Shown: positions 517 to 12,489 of the stretch, piece by piece
Numbering within the stretch: the stretch's first letter is position 1
Layout of the letters: each line of letters starts with the position of its first letter
IMG/VR virus record: IMGVR_UViG_2636415416_000016
Length of the DNA: 12,489 bases
From: a virus
Taxonomy: Duplodnaviria > Heunggongvirae > Uroviricota > Caudoviricetes
Strand: one strand, 5' to 3'
Position numbers and translations under genes: made by a program
Notes under the pieces: generated by a model
The model's input: only the letters and a program-made list of their open reading frames with translations
Databases searched by the model: none
What the model was told of the DNA's origin: nothing

Positions 517-764
517 TTCAGCGCCCGGATATTACTGCCATCCAGCGCGGTGGCAGACCAGTCAATAAAGCCGTTTGCATCAAGTAGCGAAAGCAACCTG
601 TTGAAAATAATATTAATCACGCCTGACTTTGACCATCGGTTAAAGCGGTTATAAACAGTTTTCCATGACCCATATCGTTCGGGTAAATCGCGCCATGGTG
701 CACCGGAACATAACACCCAGAACATGCCATTGATGATTTTACGGTGCTCAAGCCCCGGCGACAT
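396..764 (-). CDS. IS5-family transposase OrfA (N-terminal DNA-binding part)
   Basis: ATG at 762-764 with an in-frame TAG directly upstream (768-770). Motif FWVLCSGAPWRDLPERYGSWKTVYNRFNRW is typical of the DUF4096-type N-terminus of IS5-family transposases. The N-terminus looks short compared with family members as I recall them, so the element may be 5'-truncated. Confidence 0.6.
   Translation of the reverse strand: MSPGLEHRKIINGMFWVLCSGAPWRDLPERYGSWKTVYNRFNRWSKSGVINIIFNRLLSLLDANGFIDWSATALDGSNIRALKCAAGAQKNIPISTEIMGWVALAAVLAPKSIWQQTEVASR
492..498 (-). other. candidate -1 programmed ribosomal frameshift heptamer A_AAA_AAC
   Basis: Minus strand reads GGT GCT CAA AAA AAC ATC in the OrfA frame. 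A -1 slip on A AAA AAC gives AAA AAA CAT CCC GAT = KKHPD, which is exactly the OrfB frame. Confidence 0.5.
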
Positions 765-1383
765 TACCTATACCCGGAACAACGGAACCAAGTTGCGCAC
801 CCGCTAAAGCGCCTGATGCCGCCCCACCAATACCACGCGCAAGACTGGATGGCTGCTGCGCCTGACCTGCACGAATGGCGCCAAGCCCCTGCAAGAGTTG
901 CCCGGTATTATTGGCGTAGTTTTGCCCTGCTGTTGCCTGCCCTGATGCCGCATTCATCCCGACATTTAGCAGGTTTCCATAATTTTGCATTTGCCCACTG
1001 AGCCAATTGTTATAAAGCATGGGCGCAATGGAAGATAACTGGTTACTGGTAGCTGTTGAGCCAAGCCCCCCGGTAGCTTCTGCTGAGACAAGGTTCTGAT
1101 AACGGGCCTGATCTGCCTGTGTTTTATATAAACCAGAACCAAAGAAATCATTCGCGGCTTTATTCTGCCCTTCCAGAGTCATCAGTCCTTGCAGTTGTTG
1201 TAAAGCAGGCAATCCGACTTCTGCATACGGCTTGAGATTATTCATCACCGTATTCCACTGCTCGCGCTGCAAATCAATTGCCTGCTGCTGGGCCTTCGCC
1301 TGAGCTTTAGAGGCACCACCATCACCGCCTTTTTCGTATACGGCACGATTGAGATGTTTATGAGCTATATGGGTAATTAACAT
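748..1383 (-). CDS. Gly/Gln/Ala/Asn-rich low-complexity protein with coiled-coil-like N-terminal segment; function unknown; 3' end lies inside the IS fragment (disrupted or chimeric C-terminus)
   Basis: ATG at 1381-1383 overlaps the upstream stop (ATGTTAA, 1377-1383), with AAGGAA about 9 nt upstream. Codon usage is coding-like throughout. The frame runs into IS sequence and ends at TGA 748-750, overlapping the transposase OrfA start. Confidence 0.5.
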   Translation of the reverse strand: MLITHIAHKHLNRAVYEKGGDGGASKAQAKAQQQAIDLQREQWNTVMNNLKPYAEVGLPALQQLQGLMTLEGQNKAANDFFGSGLYKTQADQARYQNLVSAEATGGLGSTATSNQLSSIAPMLYNNWLSGQMQNYGNLLNVGMNAASGQATAGQNYANNTGQLLQGLGAIRAGQAQQPSSLARGIGGAASGALAGAQLGSVVPGIGNVAGA

Positions 1384-1838
1384 TCGCTGAATTCCTTATA
1401 TTGTTGCCGAGTTAACTGATAAAGCGTTACGCCGACGGGTTTACCACATCTGATATAAGCATCATCAAGGTGACCAACACGGGTAGCGCCAAGCAAACGG
1501 ATAATTGCCCGTCCATATTTCGTGGTGTCAGGAACCATAGTGATGCTGTTAAGGAATGGTGAGTTTTCGAGAAGCCATTTGCAGAATAATCGATGCCCTT
1601 GCAGTGCATATTCACCACGGAATCCGGGGTCGTACACCGCATGGCATTCAACAACGCTATGCCAGAAGTTACGCACTTCATGAACGCCAGCCAGCACTAA
1701 TCCTTCGTAGATGCCGAGATATACCGCATCAGGCTTGATGTAGTACGAGTGCCCCGGCTCAACAATATTTTCGGTATTGCCTGGCTCGTTAAGAAAGGCC
1801 TGTAATCGCACAGGGTTATCAATAAATTTTAGTTCCAT
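1377..1838 (-). CDS. hypothetical protein, 153 aa
   Basis: ATG at 1836-1838, 16 nt after the stop of the 53-codon ORF. Stop TAA at 1377-1379 overlaps the next start. No family recognised by eye. Confidence 0.6.
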   Translation of the reverse strand: MELKFIDNPVRLQAFLNEPGNTENIVEPGHSYYIKPDAVYLGIYEGLVLAGVHEVRNFWHSVVECHAVYDPGFRGEYALQGHRLFCKWLLENSPFLNSITMVPDTTKYGRAIIRLLGATRVGHLDDAYIRCGKPVGVTLYQLTRQQYKEFSEC

Positions 1839-1854
1839 GCGATGCCATCCATTT

Positions 1855-2016
1855 TCACATACAGCCTGCCAGCGCCTTATCTATTAACCCTCGTGCAATT
1901 TCATGCAGAGTTGGCGCTACTCCAATTCCTGATTTTTTACGCTGCTCTTCCTGAATTTTCTTTATCGCTTCCATTTGCTTCTCACTTATCAATACCGGCT
2001 TTACTGAAATAGCCAT
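1855..2016 (-). CDS. small hypothetical protein, 53 aa (MAISVKPVLISEKQMEAIKKIQEEQRKKSGIGVAPTLHEIARGLIDKALAGCM); possible small DNA-binding regulator
   Basis: Below the length cutoff of the supplied ORF track. ATG at 2014-2016 is preceded by AAGGGGG (2021-2027) at 4-nt spacing; stop TGA at 1855-1857. AT-rich codons lower confidence. The strand-helix-helix pattern is only weakly ribbon-helix-helix-like. Confidence 0.35.
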   Translation of the reverse strand: MAISVKPVLISEKQMEAIKKIQEEQRKKSGIGVAPTLHEIARGLIDKALAGCM

Positions 2017-2111
2017 AACGCCCCCTTATAACTGTATAAAACAACAGTTATTATAGTTTCACAAATCGCAATATTCATCATCGTAATTGCAGAATATGAA
2101 ACAAATAGCAC

Positions 2112-2142
2112 AAAAAAATGCCACCGCTCAGTAGCTGGTGGC
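2112..2142 (-). terminator. rho-independent terminator for the minus-strand replication operon
   Basis: Minus strand reads GCCACC-A-GCT ACTG AGC-GGTGGC followed by A and TTTTTTT (2112-2118): a GC-rich 9-bp stem with one bulge, a 4-nt loop and a U7 tract. On the plus strand the A-run precedes the hairpin, so it is unidirectional. Confidence 0.5.
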
Positions 2143-2337
2143 GTCGTTCTGTGTGTCAGGTTTTGACAGGTTTTTTATGGACTCTAAAAACTATATTTAT
2201 GGTGTCGCATTACTCTTCACGGCAGGCGCTTTTCAGTTCTGCCCTTGCTTCTGGCTCCATTGGTAATTTGATTCGCGATCAGCTATGCGGATGGTTTGCT
2301 GAACAGGCATAACAACTTCTCAGAGGCTGTTTTTTGA

Positions 2338-2356
2338 ACTACGAAAATTTCGTAGT
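2338..2356. repeat. perfect palindrome ACTACGAAA-A-TTTCGTAGT (operator-like, core TACGA-N5-TCGTA)
   Basis: 9-bp arms around a single central base, read directly from the sequence. Confidence 0.55.
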
Positions 2357-2393
2357 GCTCACTTTCAAAAACGTCACGCCCTTGTACACAGGA

Positions 2394-2414
2394 TTTTACG
2401 AAAGTCTCGTAAAA
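2394..2414. repeat. inverted repeat TTTTACGA-AAGTC-TCGTAAAA (second TACGA-N5-TCGTA site)
   Basis: 8-bp arms with a 5-bp spacer. Shares the TACGA-N5-TCGTA core with the 2338-2356 site, centre to centre about 57 bp apart. Confidence 0.55.
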
Positions 2415-2462
2415 CACTCTCTGATGCCAGCCAGGTGTTGTGCGCATCAATTCAGTCACATT

Positions 2463-2600
2463 GTGTTGGTTCAAAATACCGTGTTGTTGGTTCAGTGTTG
2501 GTTCAAAATACCGTGTTGTTGGTTCAGTGTTGGTTCAATAAAAAGAATAAAATCCTTATAAAACAATACCATTTACAAATTGAACCAACTGAACCAACAC
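2463..2600. repeat. iteron array, candidate replication origin: five direct copies of GTGTTGGTTCA, AT-rich spacer, two inverted copies
   Basis: Direct copies at 2463-2473, 2481-2494, 2495-2505, 2513-2526 and 2527-2537 form a 32-bp unit repeated twice plus a partial copy. A 43-bp spacer of about 80 percent A+T (2538-2580) follows. Inverted copies TGAACCAAC and TGAACCAACAC lie at 2581-2589 and 2590-2600. The array starts 24 bp after the primase stop. Confidence 0.6.
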
Positions 2601-2623
2601 CTTTTCTACGCACATGAAGAAGC

Positions 2624-5383
2624 TCATTCTTCAGATGAGTTATAATCTCCTGGCTGGTAATTGAGTACATAAACGTTTATTTGTCGTCCCTGAATACGTG
2701 GTGATTTTCTTTGGTATCCACGACCGCTGTTTGGTGGGGTTAGCATCCCGGCTTTTTTCAACACTTCAGCAAACTGTTTTGCGTTGAAACCACATGCGAT
2801 CTCCTTTTCAAATGTGGCCGGGAATGTGTAGAAAATCATTGGGCTTTCGTCATGTTCTCCACGCTGACGGTATCCGGCTAAATCTTTGATGGGCAAATCT
2901 GCCGGGCTGTATGGAAATGGTGCAAAACGGCTAAGCCCATAGGCATTAAGAAATGCCTCCGTTTGTTCAATAATCTGCTGATGTTCTTTGTTACCTGTGC
3001 CGAACTCGCGCAACCATGCGTTATAGCTGTGCTGTATCGCATCACGGCATGTCTGAGCATCCCAGCCTGTTACAACCTCGCCTAACAGCAATGCGGCCTC
3101 CAGAATGGCAAATCGCGCGGCTACACGGTGAACCTGCTCACCATAATCGGATGGGATCAGGTTTCTCCATCTGCTTTCGCAATCACGAACGGTTTTAATA
3201 GCCTGTTGCTGGTGGTCTGCCAGCCATTTAATCCACTCACGCCCGGCTGCGCCGTGGTGATGCTGGTAAGCGTCTTTCAGTGCGTCTGCGTGCTGTTTTC
3301 CGTTCTGGTAATCGTGAAAGCGTACTGCTTTACTCAACGGAATATTCAGCAGTCGCACCAGTTGCCCGGCTTTGGTTTTTCGCCCGGAAGTAGCGATAAA
3401 TGTTTCTAAATCCATTTCTCCGGTGCTGATTGCCACTGTACGCCAGCGTTTTAGATCCCGGTTTCCACCATCTTTAGCGCCTTGCAGTTTCCCTACACCG
3501 TTAAATAACGCATAGGCAGACTGTGAAACGCTGACAGGATCAGCGCCCTGACCAACTTCATCAAGCGGCATTAGTCCGTCATTGTGGGCGGCGGCCTCAT
3601 TTGCCAGCCCCAGCGCGGTTCCGTACCACGTCAGCCGCAGTAAATCAGGGTTGCCGTATAAGCTGCTCGCCACGTTTGCCGTGGTGGTCTTACCTGCGCT
3701 CGACTGCTCATAGAAATGAATGCCGAACCCGTCAGCGCCCACCAGCCCAATCAATGGCGCTGCCAGTGCTGCGCCGATCCCGGTCATCATTGAATAGTTA
3801 CCAAAGGCCAGACGCGCCACGTTATCACGCCAGCTTTTCGCGCTCCCTGAGACGGTATATCCGGCTGCGGCTGAGCTTCTCCCGCTGAACAGCACAGGAT
3901 TTTCAGGTGTTCCGATGATTTCCCCATCAGGCATGATGTACGCTCCGCATTGCCAGACAGTGGCATGAGCAACACGCCACAATTCACGAGAGCCACTGCG
4001 TTGTAGCCAGTCTGCCAGTATTGCTCTGAGGCTGCTTTTGGTCGTGACATTTACCCCACCAGCTTTAAGTGTGCGCCATCCTTCACGTTCACCAATATCA
4101 GCCAGTGGAATGGCAGCGGTTGTCGGCGTTTCAGAACCAAACGACAGCCAGCGAAGAATGAGATACTGGTCTTTATCGTCTCTGCCAGTACCGATAACGC
4201 TTAACGGAGAACATAACCAGCTTTCGTTATTGATGATTTCTCCACTCTGGCTGTCAGCTCTCGGAGATACCCAATAAATACCATCCTCGCGGCTTTCTAT
4301 TCTTGGTTTCAGTGGGTCGGTATCCATAACCTTAAAATCGCTTCCCTCAATGGTCTGTGGCTCCTGTTTCACGCCATTACCCTGTGGTTGGTACATTGAC
4401 TTATTGAACGCTTCTGTGGCGCATTTAATGCCGTGTTTTTGGTGGTAATCATTCCAGTCTGCTTTGTGATCTGTCGGGGGTAATGCCACCCATCCAGAAA
4501 CAGATAAAGCTGCTTTTTCTGCTGCTATTCTCCCCGTGTTTTGTCTTCCTTCGCTGTGGTCGTTATCCGCAGCAATGATGATTTGTGCTGAAGGAAATTT
4601 ATCCCGCAGTACCTGGGCGACATATAACAGGTTCCCGGCATCAATCGCCGCCACTGTCAGCGCCTCTGGACGAATTAAATGGGCAGATAATGCCGTTGCC
4701 AGCCCTTCTGCGATTAAGATGCTCTGTGTTGTTTCTGGCGCGTTTATGGCGTGATATGCCCCCCGCTTTGCTGAACCTGTCAGGAGTCTTTTTTCACCAT
4801 GTGATGTAATAGTCTGTGCTGCTGTGACTGCGCCGGATTTATCCACCAGCGCCAGCAACAGAGATCCATCGGGCAACACGGGGAATGTAAAATCACCTAC
4901 CCCTTTCGCAACCAGATAATCAGATTTGCCGTTTACAGCCTTTCTGCGCATGTCATCAAACTGACGGGAAAACGTATCCCGTCTTTGTTGTTCGTCCTTC
5001 TCTGCCCTTTTCAGGCGCTCCTGTTCGCGTCGCTGGCGCTCGGTTTCCAGTTGTTCCCGTTTCTGGCTGGTGGCTTCTGGTGTTTCCGTTGTCCGGTAAT
5101 CAATACCCAGAACATCAGCGGCAAGAAGCGCCGCCTCTGTTGTGTCGCAGTTATTTACGCGTTTAATTAAATCCAGCCCATCACCAGCGCCGCACTGATT
5201 ACAGATGAAGCTACCGCGCCCGTTGTCATCGAACCGGAATCGATCTTTGCCCCCACATGCAGGGCAGGGAGCATGACGGCGCGGAGAGTCAGGGACATTT
5301 ATGTTCAGGCAGCCCAGCACATGAGGCCAGTTGTTTTCAGACGCACTGATAACCTGACGGATAAGATCAATGTTTCGCATCAC
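2624..5383 (-). CDS. replication primase-helicase: N-terminal primase zinc ribbon, TOPRIM domain, C-terminal P-loop NTPase (DUF927-like)
   Basis: 919-codon ORF. N-terminus has CPACGGKDRFRFDDNGRGSFICNQCGAGDG (primase zinc-ribbon signature); central IIIAADNDH is a TOPRIM acidic motif; C-terminal half has Walker A SSAGKTT and Walker B LMPLDEV. Start is GTG 5381-5383 or ATG 5378-5380, overlapping the upstream gene stop. Stop TGA at 2624-2626. Confidence 0.85.
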   Translation of the reverse strand: MMRNIDLIRQVISASENNWPHVLGCLNINVPDSPRRHAPCPACGGKDRFRFDDNGRGSFICNQCGAGDGLDLIKRVNNCDTTEAALLAADVLGIDYRTTETPEATSQKREQLETERQRREQERLKRAEKDEQQRRDTFSRQFDDMRRKAVNGKSDYLVAKGVGDFTFPVLPDGSLLLALVDKSGAVTAAQTITSHGEKRLLTGSAKRGAYHAINAPETTQSILIAEGLATALSAHLIRPEALTVAAIDAGNLLYVAQVLRDKFPSAQIIIAADNDHSEGRQNTGRIAAEKAALSVSGWVALPPTDHKADWNDYHQKHGIKCATEAFNKSMYQPQGNGVKQEPQTIEGSDFKVMDTDPLKPRIESREDGIYWVSPRADSQSGEIINNESWLCSPLSVIGTGRDDKDQYLILRWLSFGSETPTTAAIPLADIGEREGWRTLKAGGVNVTTKSSLRAILADWLQRSGSRELWRVAHATVWQCGAYIMPDGEIIGTPENPVLFSGRSSAAAGYTVSGSAKSWRDNVARLAFGNYSMMTGIGAALAAPLIGLVGADGFGIHFYEQSSAGKTTTANVASSLYGNPDLLRLTWYGTALGLANEAAAHNDGLMPLDEVGQGADPVSVSQSAYALFNGVGKLQGAKDGGNRDLKRWRTVAISTGEMDLETFIATSGRKTKAGQLVRLLNIPLSKAVRFHDYQNGKQHADALKDAYQHHHGAAGREWIKWLADHQQQAIKTVRDCESRWRNLIPSDYGEQVHRVAARFAILEAALLLGEVVTGWDAQTCRDAIQHSYNAWLREFGTGNKEHQQIIEQTEAFLNAYGLSRFAPFPYSPADLPIKDLAGYRQRGEHDESPMIFYTFPATFEKEIACGFNAKQFAEVLKKAGMLTPPNSGRGYQRKSPRIQGRQINVYVLNYQPGDYNSSEE

Positions 5384-5738
5384 CGTACCCCACGTGGTCT
5401 ATAGCGTTTGCGATATGGCTAACCAGCATCTGCCACTTGGTTATTCCGTAATCAGTCAGCATGCCATCATTGTTTAGCCACATATCAAATTCAGCGGTTG
5501 TCGCAAGTTTCCACTTATCGCCGTGGACAGTCCTCATTGCTGGGTACATGAATGCGCAAATCAGATCACAAACATCTGACGGCTTCAGAGATGTAGTAAT
5601 GGTGCGTCCCTCTGGCGTCTGAATTGCCATTTTCTCTTCACCAGTAGAATGAAGGTTATGAATCCACACAGCACCAGCAATCTTTGCCACCTGCTCTCCG
5701 ATTGCGGAGCTAAGCGCCATTTCTGCATTTTCACGCAT
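5367..5738 (-). CDS. hypothetical protein, 123 aa
   Basis: ATG at 5736-5738 preceded by GGGAGGT; 8-nt stop-start overlap ATGCGTGA with the upstream gene. The 3' end overlaps the primase start by 14-17 nt. Confidence 0.6.
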   Translation of the reverse strand: MRENAEMALSSAIGEQVAKIAGAVWIHNLHSTGEEKMAIQTPEGRTITTSLKPSDVCDLICAFMYPAMRTVHGDKWKLATTAEFDMWLNNDGMLTDYGITKWQMLVSHIANAIDHVGYGDAKH

Positions 5739-6072
5739 GAGAACCTCCCGCTACAGTTGCGCCCATGTCATTAACCATGCTTTGCCATATCTCACGCCCG
5801 ACGTCAGTCAATCCGTCCTTAGTGACGCAACGCTCAAGAAGCTCGATCCCCACGGTTTCCCACTGCGGGTAGAACACTTTCATGGCTGCCAGTGTGTAGC
5901 TATCGATCAGGCTGCGAACGCCTTTTACTCCATTAACGATTTCCACACGTACGGCCTCGCCGTCCGCATCAACCATGAAATAGTCCCCGCCGCTGGTGGA
6001 GGTAATGTGGTTATACAGTGCCGACGCATACTTATTTGCCAGCGCATTCAGTCGGAAATTTTTAGTAATCAT
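5731..6072 (-). CDS. hypothetical protein, 113 aa
   Basis: ATG at 6070-6072 with GGAG-containing Shine-Dalgarno sequence; 10-nt gap after the upstream stop. Coding-like composition. Confidence 0.6.
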   Translation of the reverse strand: MITKNFRLNALANKYASALYNHITSTSGGDYFMVDADGEAVRVEIVNGVKGVRSLIDSYTLAAMKVFYPQWETVGIELLERCVTKDGLTDVGREIWQSMVNDMGATVAGGSHA

Positions 6073-6082
6073 GGCTCCATCC

Positions 6083-6685
6083 TCAGTGCGTCACTGGTTC
6101 CGCTGGCATGCCGTTTTCATTCAGTTCAGCTATAAAGCTGTTGTGAAGTTCAGCAAGCGTTTCACGACCAAATGGAGTCAGTGCTCCTTGTTCCACATCC
6201 ATCATGGCTCTGTAGAAAATGATGGCGCGTTCTGTGCCAGACTCGATGCCAAAACGTTCTATCATCGCTCCCTCAATGTTGTTTGCCATAGCGAGGCGCT
6301 CTGCTACTGGATACAGCGGCATGGCGACGATGCCGTTGGAATAAACAGCCACTTCGGAAGGATTGCCAGTATCATCAATGATGCTGACAGTGCCGTTTTC
6401 CTCTCTCATTTCCAGCATGAATACTGTTGCGATCAGCCATCTCCACATAATGACGTTATGCTGTGATGTGTAATCGAAATATCCCTGGTTGCCGCCATCG
6501 GCAATAGCGAGATGTATTGACATACCTTCATCTGGTTTATCGTCATAATCCCCGGCATCCAGACGATTTACGGCATCAATATATGAGACGGCCTCAACGC
6601 GTTCTGTCATGCCATCGTTGCTGCGGTACATGATGTTTACGCCGTCAGGCGTTGCTTCTGTATGGAAAGTTAAGAAATTATTCAT
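6083..6685 (-). CDS. hypothetical protein, 200 aa
   Basis: ATG at 6683-6685 is preferred over the TTG at 6790 used by the ORF track. It overlaps the upstream stop as ATGAATAA and has GAGG about 9 nt upstream. The longer N-terminal extension would overlap the well-formed upstream gene. Confidence 0.55.
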   Translation of the reverse strand: MNNFLTFHTEATPDGVNIMYRSNDGMTERVEAVSYIDAVNRLDAGDYDDKPDEGMSIHLAIADGGNQGYFDYTSQHNVIMWRWLIATVFMLEMREENGTVSIIDDTGNPSEVAVYSNGIVAMPLYPVAERLAMANNIEGAMIERFGIESGTERAIIFYRAMMDVEQGALTPFGRETLAELHNSFIAELNENGMPAEPVTH

Positions 6686-6899
6686 GTTTCGCCTCGCCTG
6701 AATGATTCTGTAACTCATATTTGCCCAACAATTCGTCCGCTTCCTGAATAGCTTCTGGTACGCCATTGAGCAGTGACATAACCGCGCCAATCATTAACTT
6801 GTCTCTGTTGCTGGGGCTGGCCCCTTCAAGCCAGAACCCTAAAACAGTCTGAACCTGTTCGATGCGACATTGCGCTTCAATGAGCTGGATGTTGGTCAT
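6678..6899 (-). CDS. hypothetical small protein, 73 aa
   Basis: ATG at 6897-6899 in an ATGA stop-start overlap with the upstream gene; stop TAA at 6678-6680. Confidence 0.55.
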   Translation of the reverse strand: MTNIQLIEAQCRIEQVQTVLGFWLEGASPSNRDKLMIGAVMSLLNGVPEAIQEADELLGKYELQNHSGEAKHE

Positions 6900-7159
6900 T
6901 TCGCACTCTCCACATCGATTAAACTGATATCTATCAGGGAGGTAACTTTTTGTAGCCAGCTATTGATTACTGTCGCCTGTTCCCCGCCCACCGAGGGAAC
7001 AATCTCATTCATCACATGAACCAGACCTGTGCGCGCTCTGGTAAGCCGTTCAGTCGCGCAATCTGCGGGAGTGAATGTGTCTGGATATGGCTCTTCACGC
7101 CCCAGCAATGATTCAATTTCCAGCTCACACGGATGACGATAAATTAAGTTGATATTCAT
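6896..7159 (-). CDS. hypothetical small protein, 87 aa
   Basis: ATG at 7157-7159 preceded by GGGGGTG; ATGA overlap with the upstream stop. Confidence 0.55.
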   Translation of the reverse strand: MNINLIYRHPCELEIESLLGREEPYPDTFTPADCATERLTRARTGLVHVMNEIVPSVGGEQATVINSWLQKVTSLIDISLIDVESAK

Positions 7160-7350
7160 TTTTCACCCCCAAGAATTACCAGCTCGGCACGGGCATCGTT
7201 AACCAAAGATGAGCACGCTTTAATCGCATCCACGACATCAGTAGCGTCCATTTCTTCAGCCGAAAGACTGACAGCAACCAGGACAGCCGCTGCTTGCTCG
7301 ATTAATTGAAGTGCGGACGTAAGGCGAGGGGTATTAATTGAGTTATTCAT
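7156..7350 (-). CDS. hypothetical small protein, 64 aa
   Basis: ATG at 7348-7350 is preferred over the GTG at 7407 used by the ORF track. ATGAATAA overlap with the upstream stop at 7343-7345; G-rich Shine-Dalgarno-like stretch upstream. Confidence 0.5.
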   Translation of the reverse strand: MNNSINTPRLTSALQLIEQAAAVLVAVSLSAEEMDATDVVDAIKACSSLVNDARAELVILGGEK

Positions 7351-7561
7351 TGGTTGCCCCCGTTTTTCCTGGCATTTCGCCACCTTCCAGCAGGAAATGA
7401 ACGTCACGAACGGCGAGATCCAATATCGCGAGTAACGCCTTCAGTCTTTCGTCTCGTGAGGGAGAGTTGCTCACCAGAATGTCGTTAATCACTTCTGTCA
7501 GTGTGATGATCTGGCTTGTGCGTTCGAGGGGATCCATATGCACATCGTAGGTTTTAATCAT
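7343..7561 (-). CDS. hypothetical small protein, 72 aa ([17 protein letters not shown]...); in frame with, and possibly the C-terminal part of, the long 7343-8410 open frame
   Basis: ATG at 7559-7561 preceded by GGAGGTG at about 5 nt; overlaps the stop of the 7554-7748 gene as ATGATTAA. Coding-like codon usage. Confidence 0.4.
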   Translation of the reverse strand: MIKTYDVHMDPLERTSQIITLTEVINDILVSNSPSRDERLKALLAILDLAVRDVHFLLEGGEMPGKTGATNE

Positions 7562-8410
7562 GTGCCACCTCCATGCGGATACGACCAGCAAAAAAGCAGA
7601 TGTGATCGCGCACCAGAGAACGGCGAGCATCGCGTTCAGACTCGGCAGCAATATGATGAATTTTGGCGGTAATTGTCGGGCAATCGCGGCGAACTGCGGC
7701 GATAATCCAGATAAATTGCGGTTTTTGGGTAGTGGTAGTAGCCAGCATGTGGCAGCCTCCTTGTACTGGGAGTTCTTCCCACCACCGGAGCTGCGAAACT
7801 CGCTGGTGGTGGACTGAACAGAGTTCGCAGTACCGGCGTACAAGGAAACCGGCCAGCCTTTCGGCTGCCCTGTCCAGCCCACCATAATTTTGCAAGCGAC
7901 GCGGATTATAACCGCATCACTGAAAAAAGTGTGAGTCTGGCTAACGGCACAAAAAAAGACGCTCGGCGCGTCATGTGTCGCCTCGTACATTTCCGGGCTG
8001 CGAAACCCGGCACCCGTTTTATGAGGTGCCTTATAACCATAAACCGTGTTGCCGCATAACGGCAAGCTCTTTTTTATGGACTCCGAAAACTCACTATTGG
8101 AAGCACCAGATGCACAATACATCGCGCTCATTTCGTTAACGTCGCGCGTGTGGACGAAGGTTTTTGTGGAGTCACTACGCGAGCAGAGAAAGCCATCTAC
8201 GACCAGAAATTCTCTGGCGCAGCCGCCGACCTTCTCAACGCTAACACCATCGACCGTAATTTCTGACATAGTTAAGGCATTCGCTCCCACCACCAGAAAA
8301 TGATAAACTTTGCTTGTATCTGCTGTATTAATGCCAGACTTTGCTGTCATATTGCTGGATTTTGGCGACATACCAGCCAGTGAAAATATCTTCTTCTGGA
8401 CGGTTAGCAT
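7343..8410 (-). CDS. long open frame (355 codons); only the first 220 or so codons (8410 to about 7750) look coding; possibly Ash-family-like (memory only); no in-frame stop before 7343
   Basis: ATG at 8408-8410 preceded by GGAGGT at 6 nt; overlaps the upstream stop (ATGCTAA). Codon usage is good from 8410 to about 7750, poor from 7748 to 7561 where the 64-aa gene occupies another frame, then good again from 7561. The true 3' end is ambiguous. Confidence 0.45.
7554..7748 (-). CDS. small protein, 64 aa ([43 protein letters not shown]...); resembles, from memory only, Icd-like host cell division inhibitor proteins of P4-like elements
   Basis: ATG at 7746-7748 preceded by AAGGAGG (7756-7762) at 7-nt spacing. 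Codon usage in this frame is strongly E. coli-like (all Arg as CGC/CGT, Leu as CTG), whereas the overlapping long frame uses CTA/TTA/CGA/AGG/ATA here. The TTG start at 7895 used by the ORF track is rejected. Confidence 0.5.
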   Translation of the reverse strand: MLATTTTQKPQFIWIIAAVRRDCPTITAKIHHIAAESERDARRSLVRDHICFFAGRIRMEVAHD

Positions 8411-8586
8411 TTGTTAACCTCCGCGAACTCCTTCATGAAGCGCGCCAGCGGTTGTACGCATGGCGATTGATACCCGTCGCGATAAAACGTCACTCGGTTG
8501 TGAGACACGCTTTCGACAGTAACGAGTGCTCCGTGGGCATCCTTGTAGCGTTTTTGAGGTTGTGGTGTTCCTGTCGGCTTAAACAT
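8404..8586 (-). CDS. hypothetical small protein, 60 aa ([60 protein letters not shown])
   Basis: ATG at 8584-8586 preceded by GGAGGTGG; overlaps the antirepressor-like gene stop as ATGTTTAA. The longer N-terminal extension in the ORF track is rejected because it overlaps the upstream gene. Confidence 0.55.
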   Translation of the reverse strand: MFKPTGTPQPQKRYKDAHGALVTVESVSHNRVTFYRDGYQSPCVQPLARFMKEFAEVNKC

Positions 8587-9412
8587 GGACCACCTCCAGA
8601 CGCTTAGCGAGCCAGCGTTGCGACAGGCGGGTGAGTTCTCCTTTGCGCTGCTCATATTCCATGCCCATATCAATTAACGTGATATTGGTGCTTTCGAGAT
8701 ATGAGAGGTGCTCAAGTTGTTCTGCGTTCATATGGTCGCGAGGTTCGCCAGAATAGCCATTTATCCGCGCCCACTGCTTAGCAGTTAGCCCACCAAGAAC
8801 GATACGAGAAATCATATTGCTCTCGTTTGTGTAGTGGTGTTGCTGCGTCGTTTTCCCCTGCTCGGCACGGGCCATATTCAGCGCATCGCACATTGGCTTA
8901 AAGTTGTTTGCGGCACTGATACGGGCTTTTAGCTGGCGACGATAGCGGGCGGCGATTTCAGGAACGCTACGCTGTAATTCTTCCTCGCACTGGATGAAAT
9001 AACGGCGGATAGCGCGACCCTGATCATTGCGTTCGATCATTGCCAGTTCTTTCGCCATTCCGACACTTAACAGATAGTCTTTGCCGGGTCTGCCAGACTG
9101 CTTAATCTTTCTGTAAGCCGCGCCATTCGGGCTTTTCCCCAAATTTGGGGAAATAGTTTTATGGACTGAGTAATCGTGCCCAATGGTGAAGTCATATTCA
9201 GAGATGCGATCAGTGATCCATGTAGAGAAGTCTTTTCCCACGCCCAACGCTTTGTGTAACGCTTTTGCGCTAACAATATTGGTTTCACGCCCACCGATAT
9301 GACCAGGAATAACCGGGACAATTGCGGCAAATTCATTACCGTTAATTGTGCTCAGAGAGGCGTTCAGATGAGGGGCGGCCTCAGAAATTAATCTGCTTTT
9401 TTCGATGTTCAT
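8579..9412 (-). CDS. phage antirepressor-like protein (AntA/AntB-type N-terminal domain), 277 aa
   Basis: ATG at 9410-9412 with GGAG about 8 nt upstream. N-terminal region (KDFSTWITDRISEY ... GRPGKDYLLSVGMAKELAMIERNDQGRAIRRYFIQCEEEL) matches the AntA/AntB antirepressor pattern as I recall it. The C-terminal domain is unassigned. Confidence 0.55.
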   Translation of the reverse strand: MNIEKSRLISEAAPHLNASLSTINGNEFAAIVPVIPGHIGGRETNIVSAKALHKALGVGKDFSTWITDRISEYDFTIGHDYSVHKTISPNLGKSPNGAAYRKIKQSGRPGKDYLLSVGMAKELAMIERNDQGRAIRRYFIQCEEELQRSVPEIAARYRRQLKARISAANNFKPMCDALNMARAEQGKTTQQHHYTNESNMISRIVLGGLTAKQWARINGYSGEPRDHMNAEQLEHLSYLESTNITLIDMGMEYEQRKGELTRLSQRWLAKRLEVVHV

Positions 9413-9424
9413 TTTCAGTCTCCG

Positions 9425-9856
9425 TTAAGCGGCGTTAAACGCGTCCGGGTAGAGTTTCAGAATGTCGGCAATTTCCTGCTGAGAAAGTCCGTTGTGATCA
9501 TTTATGTTCGCAAGATGGTTAATATGAGTGATCACTTTCAGAACATCACCACGGCAGGAGAAACGGTAGCGAAGGTGTGTTCCGATACCATCAGGATTCT
9601 TTTCGTCGATACGCTCCAGAGTGATTCCAAGCTGGCGTTCTAACTCTGTTGCATAGTTACGACCAGAAGACAGACGGCAGTAGCGAAGAATGTCATTTTC
9701 TGTCCATCCCTCTATACCAGTACGCAGCATATAGACTCTGGCACGATGCTTTTTCGGTGTGCGCTTTGGTGCTTGAAGGGATTTTGTAAGGGGCGTAACA
9801 TCAGATACGCGAATATCTGAATTAGCCGCCTGTAATGGGCGGTTTTTCTTATTCAT
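9425..9856 (-). CDS. hypothetical protein, 143 aa, basic N-terminus; possible DNA-binding protein
   Basis: ATG at 9854-9856 overlaps the alpA stop as TAATG. No family recognised by eye. Confidence 0.55.
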   Translation of the reverse strand: MNKKNRPLQAANSDIRVSDVTPLTKSLQAPKRTPKKHRARVYMLRTGIEGWTENDILRYCRLSSGRNYATELERQLGITLERIDEKNPDGIGTHLRYRFSCRGDVLKVITHINHLANINDHNGLSQQEIADILKLYPDAFNAA

Positions 9857-10053
9857 TACGCTACCTCGCCACGCGACTCAGCGATGCGCTGATTAATCCA
9901 TTCTTCAATTTCACTTTCAATAAACGCAATTGATCGGCTTCCAATCTTTACAGATTGAGGGAATCGCTGTTCTTTGATGAGCCGATAAATCCACGCTTTG
10001 CTGTAACCAGTACGGCGTTGAACCTCAGAAAGACGAATAAATGATTGAGACAT
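9856..10053 (-). CDS. alpA: AlpA-family phage transcriptional regulator (Vis/AlpA-like helix-turn-helix), 65 aa
   Basis: MSQSFIRLSEVQRRTGYSKAWIYRLIKEQRFPQSVKIGSRSIAFIESEIEEWINQRI fits the AlpA pattern (RL..V...TG.S...IY.L.....FP...K.G.RS..W...EI.EW). ATG at 10051-10053 preceded by AGGAG at 5 nt. It is the first gene of the long operon. Confidence 0.8.
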   Translation of the reverse strand: MSQSFIRLSEVQRRTGYSKAWIYRLIKEQRFPQSVKIGSRSIAFIESEIEEWINQRIAESRGEVA

Positions 10054-10171
10054 GTTTACTCCTATATTCTGTCATCTTCTTTAATGGACATCAGTAGACA
10101 GAAAGGAGATTAAACAAACCGGTGAATGGGTGATAGCGGATAAAAATAAAATATTTTTTTGAGAAGATTAT

Positions 10172-10206
10172 CCGCTTTGAAATACACAGTAGCGTATTCA
10201 AAGCGG
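10172..10206. repeat. inverted repeat CCGCTTTGAA-N15-TTCAAAGCGG between the acidic cargo gene and alpA; possible terminator or operator
   Basis: 10-bp perfect arms at 10172-10181 and 10197-10206, flanked by A/T runs. On the minus strand no U-tract follows immediately, so it is not a canonical terminator. Confidence 0.4.
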
Positions 10207-10250
10207 AAATCGCGAAATTTACTTAAAACGTTTACGTAGGATTTTGCTTG

Positions 10251-11132
10251 CTATAAATCTCTACTCATTAAATCAGATATTTTTATCAAGCTCATTTCTC
10301 TGTCTTTGTTTACATAAAGCTGAAGCAAGCGGGTGTATCTCTCGCTTATAGATTCAAGTGCAAAAGGCTTTATTGATTCCTTAATAGCCTGCGTATCTTT
10401 CGGATCATCACTAAAAACCAAGGCAGAAATCATCGGATTGCTCACTTCCTTACCTGACTTCTCACCCCAAATCAGCAGATCAACAATAGGTATCACTCTA
10501 TTAGATATCAACTTCTGAAGGGTCTTTAATCCAATCCTTTTCTGAGCGACATGCTCTCTCTCTGGTACTTTTAACTCTTTTCGCCATAGAGGTAGAAGGT
10601 GAGTCAGGCTGGTAATAATTTCGTCATCAGTGGCGTCATCTAAATCTATAGAAACGAGTATGATGTTAGGGGAACAATTACTTAGGTTTCCAGTAACACT
10701 CGCAAGCATAGCGTTTGCCTTGAGGTAGCAATCCTCTTCGTCTCTTTTAAAAAAGCCTTGATCTATCGATGAGAAAGAGTACATGGCCAGCTCTGAAAAT
10801 GTTACTGGACTAACCCCCATAGCTGAAGATAATGAGGGAAGATCATCGTACTCATTTCTTAATGATGGGGCTTCATCATTTACTTTGCGAATAAATTCTT
10901 CGACCTCTTCCTCTTCTTCATTGAGAATGGTTAGGTTAGGATCGCCCGAAAAAATCCTTTCATATTTTATATCGTACTCTTCTTTGAATATAGCAGTGTC
11001 ATCTTTTGCATGACGCAATAAAAAATCGCGCCACTCTAATTCTTGAATCAAGTCCGGCAAGGTTAAATCATTTAAAAATTCATAATTACTAATATCAAAC
11101 CATGCTAAATCTTGTTTTTTGGCTCTCACCAT
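10251..11132 (-). CDS. highly acidic hypothetical protein, 293 aa, encoded by a low-GC gene; cargo between integrase and alpA
   Basis: ATG at 11130-11132, stop TAG at 10251-10253. Sampled stretches are about 37-43 percent G+C against more than 50 percent in neighbouring genes. Asp/Glu greatly outnumber Lys/Arg, with an EEEEEVEE run. No P-loop, nuclease or transmembrane motifs seen by eye. Confidence 0.65.
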   Translation of the reverse strand: MVRAKKQDLAWFDISNYEFLNDLTLPDLIQELEWRDFLLRHAKDDTAIFKEEYDIKYERIFSGDPNLTILNEEEEEVEEFIRKVNDEAPSLRNEYDDLPSLSSAMGVSPVTFSELAMYSFSSIDQGFFKRDEEDCYLKANAMLASVTGNLSNCSPNIILVSIDLDDATDDEIITSLTHLLPLWRKELKVPEREHVAQKRIGLKTLQKLISNRVIPIVDLLIWGEKSGKEVSNPMISALVFSDDPKDTQAIKESIKPFALESISERYTRLLQLYVNKDREMSLIKISDLMSRDL

Positions 11133-11274
11133 ACGCCACCCCGCGCCCCTAATTCTGACGGCTATGCCAGCCCGTAGGGGTGTACGGGTTTTCGGGGATC
11201 AGCCTAGACATAGCCTATTCTTTGTTCGTCTACATAAGTCTACTACCATTGCTTAACACGGTCTATTCATACAG

Positions 11275-12489
11275 TTAAGCTCGTTTCCCAAACGAACCAT
11301 GAACAACGTTCTCCTCCTTCTCCAGCGCATCCATATAGTCGGCATACCATTGAAGCATCTCCCGCCTTCCATCCAGATATTGCGCATGGTTGTATGTGCC
11401 ACGAATTGAGTTCTTATCAACGTGAGCGAGCTGCGTTTCTATCCACGCGGTGTTATAGCCCTGCTCATGCAAAATCGTGCTCATAGTGTGCCGGAACCCA
11501 TGACCAGTTACACGTCCAGCGTAGCCAATGCGCTTAAACACTTGGTTTATGCTGGCCTCACTCATTGTTTTCCTTGGATCATTGCGCCCGGGAAACATAA
11601 GAGGGTAATTGCCTGTTATTTCTCTAATCTTCCCAATAAGCGAAAGAGCCTGATCAGACAATGGCACAATATGAGGCCGCCGCATTTTCATACGTGAAGC
11701 GGGTATCTCCCAGATAGCCTTGTTGAAATCAATTTCATCCCATAATGCGCCACGTAGTTCGCCAGTCCGCAAGCCGGTGATAATCAGTAGACGAGCCGCC
11801 ATAACAACCAATGCGCTTCTTGAGTAACTGGACAATGCCTTGAAAAAATCAGGTAATTCTTTAGCTGTAAGGAAAGGGTAATGATTAGATTCATGGCCTT
11901 GCATCGCGCTAGTAAGGTCTGGTGCAGGGTTATACTCTGCGCGACCAGTGACTATTGCATAGCGGAAAACTTCCCCGCACCGCTGCCTCACTTTTTTGGC
12001 TTTTTCTGTAGCACCGCGCCCCTCGATGCGCCGCAGCACATTCAGAAGTTCAAGTGGTTTGATTTCGGCGATTGGTTTTTTGCCAATGTAAGGGAACACA
12101 TCTTTGTTGAAGGCTTCGAGGATGTCTGAAGCATAACCAGCAGACCATTTTTTTAATTTGCTGCTGTGCCACTCAAGGGCAATATCTTTGAAGGTGTTGT
12201 TTAACTGCGTTTCCCGGGCAATCTTTTCCTCTCGTTTCGCTTCCATCGGATCGATACCACCAGCGATACCTCTTTTCGCATCTTCACGTTTTGCCCGAGC
12301 ATCGGCTAGAGTAACCTCAGGATACACACCTAGTGCCAATAGCTTCTCTTTACCAGCTACACGATATTTAAGTCGCCAGTATTTACCTCCATTAGGTTTT
12401 ACCAAGAGATACAAACCGCCACCATCGGCCAGCTTGTAAGCCTTCTCTTTTGGCTTGGCTGTGTCTATTTGACGGGCATTGAGTTTCAC
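11275..12489 (-). CDS. int: P4-type tyrosine integrase (site-specific recombinase)
   Basis: N-terminus KLNARQIDTAKPKEKAYKLADGGGLYLLVKPNGGKYWRLKYR is the classic P4-integrase arm-binding signature. C-terminal catalytic region has HGFRH and the RGTYNHAQY tyrosine motif. Stop TAA at 11275-11277. The frame starts at the window edge (GTG 12487-12489), so the true start may lie just beyond the window. Confidence 0.9.
   Translation of the reverse strand: MKLNARQIDTAKPKEKAYKLADGGGLYLLVKPNGGKYWRLKYRVAGKEKLLALGVYPEVTLADARAKREDAKRGIAGGIDPMEAKREEKIARETQLNNTFKDIALEWHSSKLKKWSAGYASDILEAFNKDVFPYIGKKPIAEIKPLELLNVLRRIEGRGATEKAKKVRQRCGEVFRYAIVTGRAEYNPAPDLTSAMQGHESNHYPFLTAKELPDFFKALSSYSRSALVVMAARLLIITGLRTGELRGALWDEIDFNKAIWEIPASRMKMRRPHIVPLSDQALSLIGKIREITGNYPLMFPGRNDPRKTMSEASINQVFKRIGYAGRVTGHGFRHTMSTILHEQGYNTAWIETQLAHVDKNSIRGTYNHAQYLDGRREMLQWYADYMDALEKEENVVHGSFGKRA

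Follow-up and report, generated by a model that had tools for sequence, protein, structure and literature searches.

The DNA examined here is a window of 12,489 nt (the whole stretch that was analysed) from the virus record IMGVR_UViG_2636415416_000016 (Caudoviricetes), and carries on its minus strand a mobile island that extends from an integrase gene (11275-12489) down to an operon lying beyond the replication origin (748-2111). We identified this locus as the promoter-proximal part of the post-origin operon of a phage-inducible chromosomal island (PICI) of the EcCIMP1 type. Three minus-strand open reading frames (ORFs) are found there: a leader gene for a 53-aa protein, first in the operon and recognised by ORF call and conservation (1855-2016), a gene for a 153-aa protein (1377-1838) and a gene encoding 211 aa (748-1383). 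A gap of 16 nt separates the first two, while the second and third overlap in ATGTTAA. The leader gene has a ribosome-binding site, AAGGGGG (2021-2027), 4 nt upstream of its ATG at 2016, and is preceded by a -10 hexamer TATAAT (2050-2055). An intrinsic terminator-like hairpin on the same strand (GCCACC-N11-GGTGGC followed by seven T, ~2112-2143) divides the primase and origin region from the module; a terminator scan placed the hairpin and T-run at 2135-2120, and the GGTGGC-T-run is kept in the aligned related islands. Related islands here and below come from loci collected via the 153-aa and 53-aa proteins, with one genome per species plus metagenome contigs. Between the terminator and the gene for a satellite primase/helicase (2624-5383, minus strand; Zn-ribbon, Toprim and DUF927 in Pfam), a repeat scan detected origin-type iterons, a 32-bp unit repeated 2.4 times (2463-2538). 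An initial annotation, made from the sequence alone, had proposed a separate three-gene module downstream of the origin and terminator of a phage satellite, with an undescribed accessory or interference function. ORF calls, the scan and our own reading of the sequence agree with it on the three genes, their coordinates and spacing and the three short signals, and its view of a separate operon inside a satellite is borne out, the promoter with its TATAAT being conserved in related islands. An Rfam scan detected no RNA family within 748-2111.

The same annotation had held that none of the three proteins matches a nameable family, which proved wrong for two of them. The 153-aa protein is a homologue of the P22 gene 14 product, belonging to PF11039 (DUF2824; E 1.4e-61, 207 bits against a cut-off of 25) and to PHROG 651 'head morphogenesis' (E 1e-66). 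Its gene lies directly upstream of gene 7 and overlaps the start codon of the latter, an arrangement also seen in P22 and in the P22-like phage Kapi1. The island gp14 is 84% identical to gp14 of Kapi1 and 23% identical to that of P22 (E 1e-7), the nearest phage proteins being those of the Lederbergvirus Kapi1 and its relatives (82-85%). In P22 the gene 14 product is presumably an assembly factor that is absent from the virion. An AlphaFold2 model of the 153-aa protein (pLDDT 91.6) matched SpeG and other GNATs in a Foldseek search of the PDB (E 3e-9, TM 0.74-0.78), and a GNAT acetyltransferase-like fold is confidently predicted. The putative acetyl-CoA loop, which follows the fourth strand, has the sequence FRGEYA, with G75, Y77 and A78 invariant but without the canonical R/Q-x-x-G-x-G/A spacing. 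Food for speculation is that such a predicted fold in DUF2824/gp14 might imply acylation in the assembly of ejection proteins. The 211-aa product, rich in glycine (14%), glutamine (11%) and asparagine (8.5%) as had been remarked, is a gp7-type protein: it matches PF25688 (Bacteriophage P22 DNA ejection protein gp7) at E 1.3e-69 and 235 bits, the cut-off being 28, and PHROG 598 'DNA ejection', and is 57% identical to gp7 of Kapi1 and 56% to gp7 of P22. Sequence searches of the PDB with gp14 and gp7 returned nothing useful. We consider the three ORFs to be real genes because of the Pfam E-values (1e-61 and 1e-69) and of the low dN/dS ratios described below. Plus-strand ORFs at 744-1001, 1522-1683, 1556-1738 and 1842-2012 were rejected, being antisense to genes with strong family matches.

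The gp7 gene of the window is incomplete. Full-length gp7 proteins have about 215-230 aa and a Gly-rich hydrophobic C-terminus; profile positions 213-230 are missing here and intact in relatives. Over its 211 aa the window protein is 100% identical to the intact 225-aa gp7 of the Escherichia coli AREA_486 island (L001), and lacks the last 14 residues, IGGGLIGLVGGVGF. The initial annotation had put the protein at 'at least 211 aa', and the native protein (225 aa) is indeed longer, albeit for an unexpected reason: the frame runs into a 5'-truncated insertion sequence (IS), ISSfl7, and stops at a TGA (748-750) that comes from the IS. Codon 211 of gp7 is joined to the interior of the ISSfl7 transposase gene at a 5-nt microhomology, GGGCT (751-755); in the alignments island homology stops at 751 and ISSfl7 homology starts at 755. 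The ISSfl7-like element, of the IS5 family, occupies 1-755 on the minus strand, is 99.7% identical to ISSfl7 copies and matches DUF4096 (positions 27-75 of 76 only) and DDE_Tnp_1 in Pfam. Compared with a full copy it begins ~91 nt inside its own transposase coding sequence, without the first ~30 codons and the inverted repeat. A simple IS insertion can be rejected, as the IS copy is itself 5'-truncated, and the joint between gp7 and the IS is a deletion junction. This junction was not found in any complete E. coli genome. At least the contiguous genes for gp20 and gp16 were removed from the operon of the window, which itself begins inside the IS. Thus, of the contiguous 14-7-20-16 set only gene 14 and a truncated gene 7 are left, and this particular copy of the module is probably a non-functional remnant. 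An ORF listed at 396-764 begins at an ATG of the gp7 sequence and is therefore artefactual, created by the fusion. Copies of ISSfl7 with 99.7% identity occur mainly on pINV-type plasmids and on chromosomes of strains resembling enteroinvasive E. coli (EIEC), which hints at Shigella or EIEC as the source.

For the 53-aa leader protein the initial annotation stood, in that profile and structure searches of the kind it had proposed gave no significant match. No Pfam or PHROG family was obtained even with all 11 homologues at E up to 10, a profile search of the PDB was without match, hhalign against P22 Arc was negative and tblastn yielded no match in 50,697 phage records. The AlphaFold2 model (pLDDT 78) consists of an extended N-terminus and two helices, and its best Foldseek matches are plant TCP domains with a non-significant E of about 3. 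The modelled topology fits a ribbon-helix-helix protein, and the product is possibly a small DNA-binding regulator. Homologues are present in several Enterobacterales genera, where they invariably open the operon, downstream of the same promoter and irrespective of cargo. To judge from these searches, the leader gene is specific to islands and has no phage homologue.

Conservation of the leader gene takes in ~110 nt of upstream sequence and holds even where the islands have other cargo. The promoter consensus is TTTCAT..TGCAAT..ATGAT.ATTGCG..TGAAAC-TATAAT-..CTGT-N8-ACAG, and the TATAAT hexamer is kept in most related islands checked, namely those of Escherichia, Leclercia, Serratia, Citrobacter and one of Klebsiella; the other Klebsiella island has TAAAAT, and the exact hexamer was not found in the Buttiauxella island in the promoter alignment. 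A consensus promoter scan called no sigma-70 promoter at TATAAT and the -35 hexamer is poor; since it is not canonical, an activator may also be needed. Directly downstream of the -10 hexamer lies a LexA-type SOS box, CTGT-N8-ACAG (2032-2047), the single match to this pattern in the window where 0.14 are expected, which we take to be closely similar to the uvrB box. A CTG-N10-CAG palindrome occupies the same offset in Escherichia, Leclercia, Buttiauxella, Serratia (17/20 to the consensus) and Citrobacter (16/20), so that the box is conserved in five of the seven genera while its spacer differs among them. From this we infer that the operon would be under SOS control.

The element itself is already known. 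Gram-negative PICIs of the EcCIMP1 family are recognised by an integrase, AlpA, a primase-replicase and an origin, all of which are present in the window, and by a size of about 20 kb and a tRNA attachment site; the attachment sites fall outside the window, and relatives of the EcCIMP1 type are integrated at tRNA-Thr beside proA. The window is 99.5% identical (751-12489) to an island of E. coli Combat13F7 and shows 98.2% nucleotide identity (751-10044) to the island of E. coli MP1, that is EcCIMP1, a published PICI mobilised by phage vB_EcoP_Kapi1 (Pick, Stadel & Raivio, ISME J 2025, PMC11773190). EcCIMP1 measures 19,963 bp and sits at tRNA-Thr between proA and yagU; its excision requires the presence of the P22-like Kapi1, which transduces it at low frequency, and the island increases the superinfection immunity of Kapi1 lysogens (PMC11773190). 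Both elements share the order int, AlpA, AntA, ash, primase, 53-aa gene, DUF2824 and gp7. They differ in that only the window has, like Combat13F7, a DUF6387 gene after int, and in that its gp7 end and the contiguous gp20 and gp16 genes were lost through the deletion fused to ISSfl7. In our locus L003 the module (15481-20827) is enclosed by the sequenced excision boundaries of EcCIMP1 (10709-30671). The EcCIMP1 authors noted that EcCIMP1_017-019 resemble 'DNA transfer'/DUF2824 proteins and Kapi1 genes, and suggested a role in packaging, an idea drawn from the position downstream of the primase; they reported no phage structural genes (PMC11773190). Their paper does not identify these genes as the P22 ejection set, nor does it report a LexA-type box. 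The module was therefore not the undescribed system that the initial annotation had supposed.

The complete operon can be seen in related islands. In intact relatives (L001-L003, L005, L007, L009 and L024) the 225-aa gp7 is followed by a gp20-like protein (Inj_translocase, 439-473 aa) and then by a protein of 670, 701 or 906 aa in the gp16 slot, all forms of which belong to PHROG 770, the 906-aa form having an N-terminal SLT transglycosylase domain. Each of the island proteins gp14, gp7, gp20 and gp16 is directly similar to its P22 counterpart, and the gene order is that of P22 and Kapi1. From island to island gp14 and gp7 hardly differ; mosaicism affects the C-terminal half of gp20 and the whole of gp16, and P22-like phages show the same kind of mosaicism in gp20 and gp16 (PMC10883804). 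Comparing EcCIMP1 with its helper Kapi1, identity is 57% for gp7, about 26% for gp20 and about 24% for gp16. Given these low values, the EcCIMP1 proteins are of a different type from those of Kapi1. In a Citrobacter freundii island (L023, 9132-13143) the gp20/gp16 region is split into ORFs of 373, 69, 219, 472 and 233 aa, and may be a decaying or rearranged copy, or else a variant with the SLT domain as a separate protein.

Homology to virion-associated proteins raises the question of whether the module is a satellite feature at all, or rather functionless debris, left by a P22-like prophage that had occupied the island's own tRNA-Thr site before the two were fused. Genes 14-7-20-16(-sieA) are contiguous near the right end of a P22-type prophage, P22 integrates at thrW, so that the tRNA-Thr site is common to island and P22, and the copy in the window is truncated. 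In P22-like prophages of Escherichia, Erwinia, Kluyvera, Proteus, Yersinia and Serratia, though, these genes come after those for the portal, gp10 and the needle. Upstream of the module in the window lie the origin and the primase gene, not P22 morphogenesis genes. No gp26, gp10 or portal gene is found upstream in any island locus, and tblastn with the portal, gp10 and needle proteins of Kapi1 gave matches in prophage loci only and none in island loci. The order primase-leader-gp14-gp7-gp20-gp16 recurs in Escherichia, Leclercia (primase 68% identical), Buttiauxella (primase 49%) and Pectobacterium; the Citrobacter island has the leader-gp14-gp7-gp20-gp16 operon with no primase called, and the Serratia islands have the leader gene, gp20 and gp16 only. 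Hence the three genes of the window co-occur in related islands of several genera, a pattern whose absence had been set beforehand as grounds against a conserved module, and the junction with the leader gene and promoter is kept in six genera with primases as divergent as 49%. Moreover, dN/dS between island copies of different genera is 0.07-0.09 for gp14, 0.08 for gp7 and 0.03-0.05 for the leader, values obtained with saturated dS, and on this comparison of sequences the module genes are under purifying selection. In a neighbour-joining tree calculated with no bootstrap, the gp7 proteins of the Escherichia, Leclercia, Citrobacter and Pectobacterium islands form a clade far from all phage gp7, with the Buttiauxella copy as an outlier. 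Among 5426 complete E. coli genomes, 253 (~5%) have the island-specific upstream region along with gp14 and gp7. Island context, selection, phylogeny and prevalence lead us to conclude that, at the level of the family, the module is a maintained satellite feature and not debris, in an element that excises. The homology to virion-associated phage proteins, which had been named beforehand as a possible refutation, is thus clear, but the genes sit in a functional satellite family; a degraded P22-like prophage is largely refuted for the family, and we find the debris explanation hardly credible.

What, then, might a satellite gain from these genes? The gene 20 and gene 16 products are the periplasmic and inner-membrane parts of the channel through which the phage DNA enters the cell. 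We lean slightly towards the inferred reading that the satellite loads DNA-delivery channel proteins of its own into the capsids of the helper. In such a scheme DNA damage would lead to LexA cleavage and to induction of a P22-like helper prophage such as Kapi1, and the same cleavage would de-repress the operon through the SOS box overlapping its promoter. The satellite ejection proteins, with the gp14 helper factor, would then be made during assembly of the helper procapsids and loaded into them, and particles transducing the island would open the envelope of the recipient through a channel specified by the satellite. The likely benefit, and the most speculative step, would be entry into cells that block the ejection type of the helper, for instance by SieA-like exclusion. 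Exchanges of this kind are tolerated by P22: its virions take up the gene 7/20/16 products of Sf6, L, CUS-3 and HK620 in functional form, provided that gp16 and gp20 have a common source (PMC10883804). Mutations that escape SieA map to gp16 and gp20, the HK620 proteins escape in part, and transduced DNA is also blocked by SieA (PMC10883804). Two points fit capsid loading, namely the retention of exactly the co-dependent gp20 and gp16 pair in the Serratia islands and the difference in type between the ejection proteins of island and helper.

Several points weigh against this scheme. Transduction of EcCIMP1 by Kapi1 is low (about 5e3 per ml), the Kapi1 titre is unchanged, and a Kapi1-like prophage is present in only 2 of 21 strains carrying EcCIMP1 (PMC11773190). 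Ejection proteins enter procapsids before the DNA, so that they could not be targeted to satellite-filled particles. Regarding regulation, the LexA-type box is only a pattern match and is degenerate in the Klebsiella and Pectobacterium islands. In addition, the alpA promoter of EcCIMP1 answers to the helper and not to DNA damage alone (PMC11773190), so that the overall control may be more complex.

The foreign type of the ejection proteins could also serve to harm the helper. Satellite gp20 and gp16 might co-assemble with those of the helper into mismatched, non-infectious virions and so reduce helper spread; indeed, P22 carrying only the gp16 or only the gp20 of Sf6 is non-infectious although the foreign protein is incorporated (PMC10883804), and the island proteins are far in type from those of Kapi1. 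Yet satellite-containing particles would be poisoned equally, and induced lysogens give equal Kapi1 titres whether or not EcCIMP1 is present (PMC11773190). We therefore regard interference, one of the functions originally proposed for the module, as improbable. Still less can be said for a packaging or capsid-redirection module as tentatively proposed by the EcCIMP1 authors, which we hold to be highly improbable. The position is that of packaging modules in other PICIs, space inside the capsid is contested between ejection proteins and DNA (PMC8402733), and Terminase_2 and DUF2280 genes lie further down the operon in a sister island of Klebsiella michiganensis (L020). Against this, each of the four proteins has its homologue in the ejection set, and that set takes no part in recognising DNA or fixing capsid size; the E. 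coli islands have no protein resembling a small terminase subunit, Rpp or a scaffold.

Alternatively, the resident cell could be the beneficiary. The module or its neighbours might block DNA entry by superinfecting P22-like phages, for example if island ejection proteins disturbed assembly of the incoming channel, with remodelling of the virion secondary or absent. In some islands a SieA-like gene directly follows gp16 on the opposite strand, as in P22, and EcCIMP1 has a lipoprotein-like ORF at that position. These SieA-like or lipoprotein genes are a simpler source of immunity than the ejection proteins, however, and no route is known by which ejection proteins synthesised in the cytoplasm would reach the envelope. 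Furthermore, the predicted LexA-repressed promoter would silence the genes in healthy cells, and a full co-adapted 14-7-20-16 set under purifying selection exceeds what a decoy needs. Defence of the resident cell by this module is in our opinion unlikely.

The slot behind gp16 deserves attention of its own. In the AREA_486 island an ORF (L001, 19133-19747, minus strand) next to the gp16-like gene and on the opposite strand is SieA-like: it is 30% identical over 108 aa to P22 SieA, falls into the SieA-like PHROG (E 2e-4) and occupies the position of sieA in P22. The sieA genes reported by Leavitt et al. (2024) were all in P22-like prophages, and a sieA-like gene on a satellite may be new. The same slot holds the lipoprotein-like ORF of EcCIMP1, of 232 aa, and a membrane-like ORF of 129 aa in the island L002. 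Either of the latter two ORFs could be the origin of the reported superinfection immunity.

Behind the same leader gene other cargo is found as well. Islands of Klebsiella michiganensis have the same leader gene and promoter followed by virion-type genes of a different kind. One of them (L017, 10248-12065) encodes a 605-aa protein that shares 67% identity with a protein labelled 'lytic transglycosylase / virion / tape measure' in Yersinia vB_YenM phages, and the other (L020, 10198-11202) a 334-aa protein with the PHROG label 'baseplate hub', 60% identical to a protein encoded ~1 kb downstream in the same phages. The source of both is one temperate phage group (Yersinia vB_YenM_06.16-1, Klebsiella RothC and Chronis, Pantoea PdC23), in which the Yersinia/Klebsiella virus names include the 'M' that stands for myovirus. 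Over the family as a whole, the operon thus tends to hold homologues of envelope-penetration or DNA-delivery proteins of a particular phage type. A broader and more tentative extension of capsid loading, which we consider possible but doubtful, is an 'ejectosome swapping' in which a conserved, SOS-controlled leader gene would be combined with a replaceable delivery cassette specific for the type of helper, built into the hijacked virions and bypassing exclusion of the SieA type. The cassette would be gp14-gp7-gp20-gp16 for P22-like podovirus helpers, and transglycosylase/tape-measure-like or baseplate-hub-like for the Yersinia/Klebsiella group. If this were true, islands carrying a SieA-like gene would both exclude P22-like phages and supply delivery proteins of another type, and swapping would represent a new class of satellite-helper interaction, one that operates as DNA enters the cell and not on packaging or the size of the capsid.

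Satellites are known to act through helper induction, packaging specificity, capsid size and tail capture. A satellite-borne ejection channel would extend hijacking to the entry step and could explain how cells protected by exclusion are reached; our literature searches found no described satellite that supplies DNA-delivery channel proteins. The closest counterpart in content is the 14-7-20-16 block (then sieA) of P22 and other Lederbergvirus phages, with which the islands share families, order, tight coupling and the mosaicism of gp20 and gp16, in some cases also a SieA-like gene after gp16. Whereas the phage block follows the tail-needle gene in the late operon, the island block follows the primase, origin, terminator, its own promoter and the 53-aa gene, and its gp7 forms a clade apart from phage gp7. 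In layout the operon resembles operon I of the Staphylococcus aureus pathogenicity islands (SaPIs), which is reported to be under LexA control (Ubeda et al., 2007, as cited in PMC6092414). As far as that secondary account goes, both are satellite operons that come after the replication module, hold helper-exploitation genes and are apparently controlled by LexA; SaPI operon I encodes a small terminase subunit and capsid-size and interference proteins, and LexA control of the island operon is predicted from sequence. With Sid and Psu of P4 and with the capsid-building cf-PICIs (capsid-forming PICIs) the island would share a satellite-encoded protein that joins or reshapes the carrying particle. 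Sid and Psu act on capsid size and cf-PICIs build capsids, while the island proteins would form a DNA-delivery channel. Finally, gp14, gp15 and gp16 of T7 are functional analogues of P22 gp7, gp20 and gp16, forming the outer-membrane pore, the periplasmic tunnel and the inner-membrane part (PMC8954989), and the SLT transglycosylase domain of T7 gp16 also occurs in some proteins of the island gp16 slot. There is no meaningful sequence similarity to the T7 ejectosome, whose genes are phage and not satellite genes. The retention of a complete DNA-ejection gene set by a satellite is directly testable for its purpose in the EcCIMP1/Kapi1 system.

The remainder of the island, between the integrase and the primase, is typed by Pfam and lies on the minus strand. 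AlpA is encoded at 9856-10053, and an AntA-type antirepressor, an Ash-family ORF of 355 aa (7343-8410) and several small ORFs are also present. The Ash domain match is limited to residues 124-232, and Rfam placed within this ORF a C4 antisense RNA (7802-7889, minus strand, 81 bits) and an isrK RNA (7952-8029, minus strand, 69 bits). The two matches suggest a P1/P4-type RNA immunity region and an over-called ORF; in EcCIMP1 and L001 the annotation gives a partial pseudogene in its place, with an Icd-like gene behind it. Between int and alpA lies the DUF6387 gene (10251-11132). This slot is variable, the gene being present in the window, in Combat13F7 and in the Serratia islands and absent from EcCIMP1, and it is possibly a hotspot for defence or accessory genes. 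Just downstream of the integrase gene, Rfam reported an int-alpA RNA (11147-11214, minus strand, 46.7 bits) overlapping the first codons of the DUF6387 ORF.

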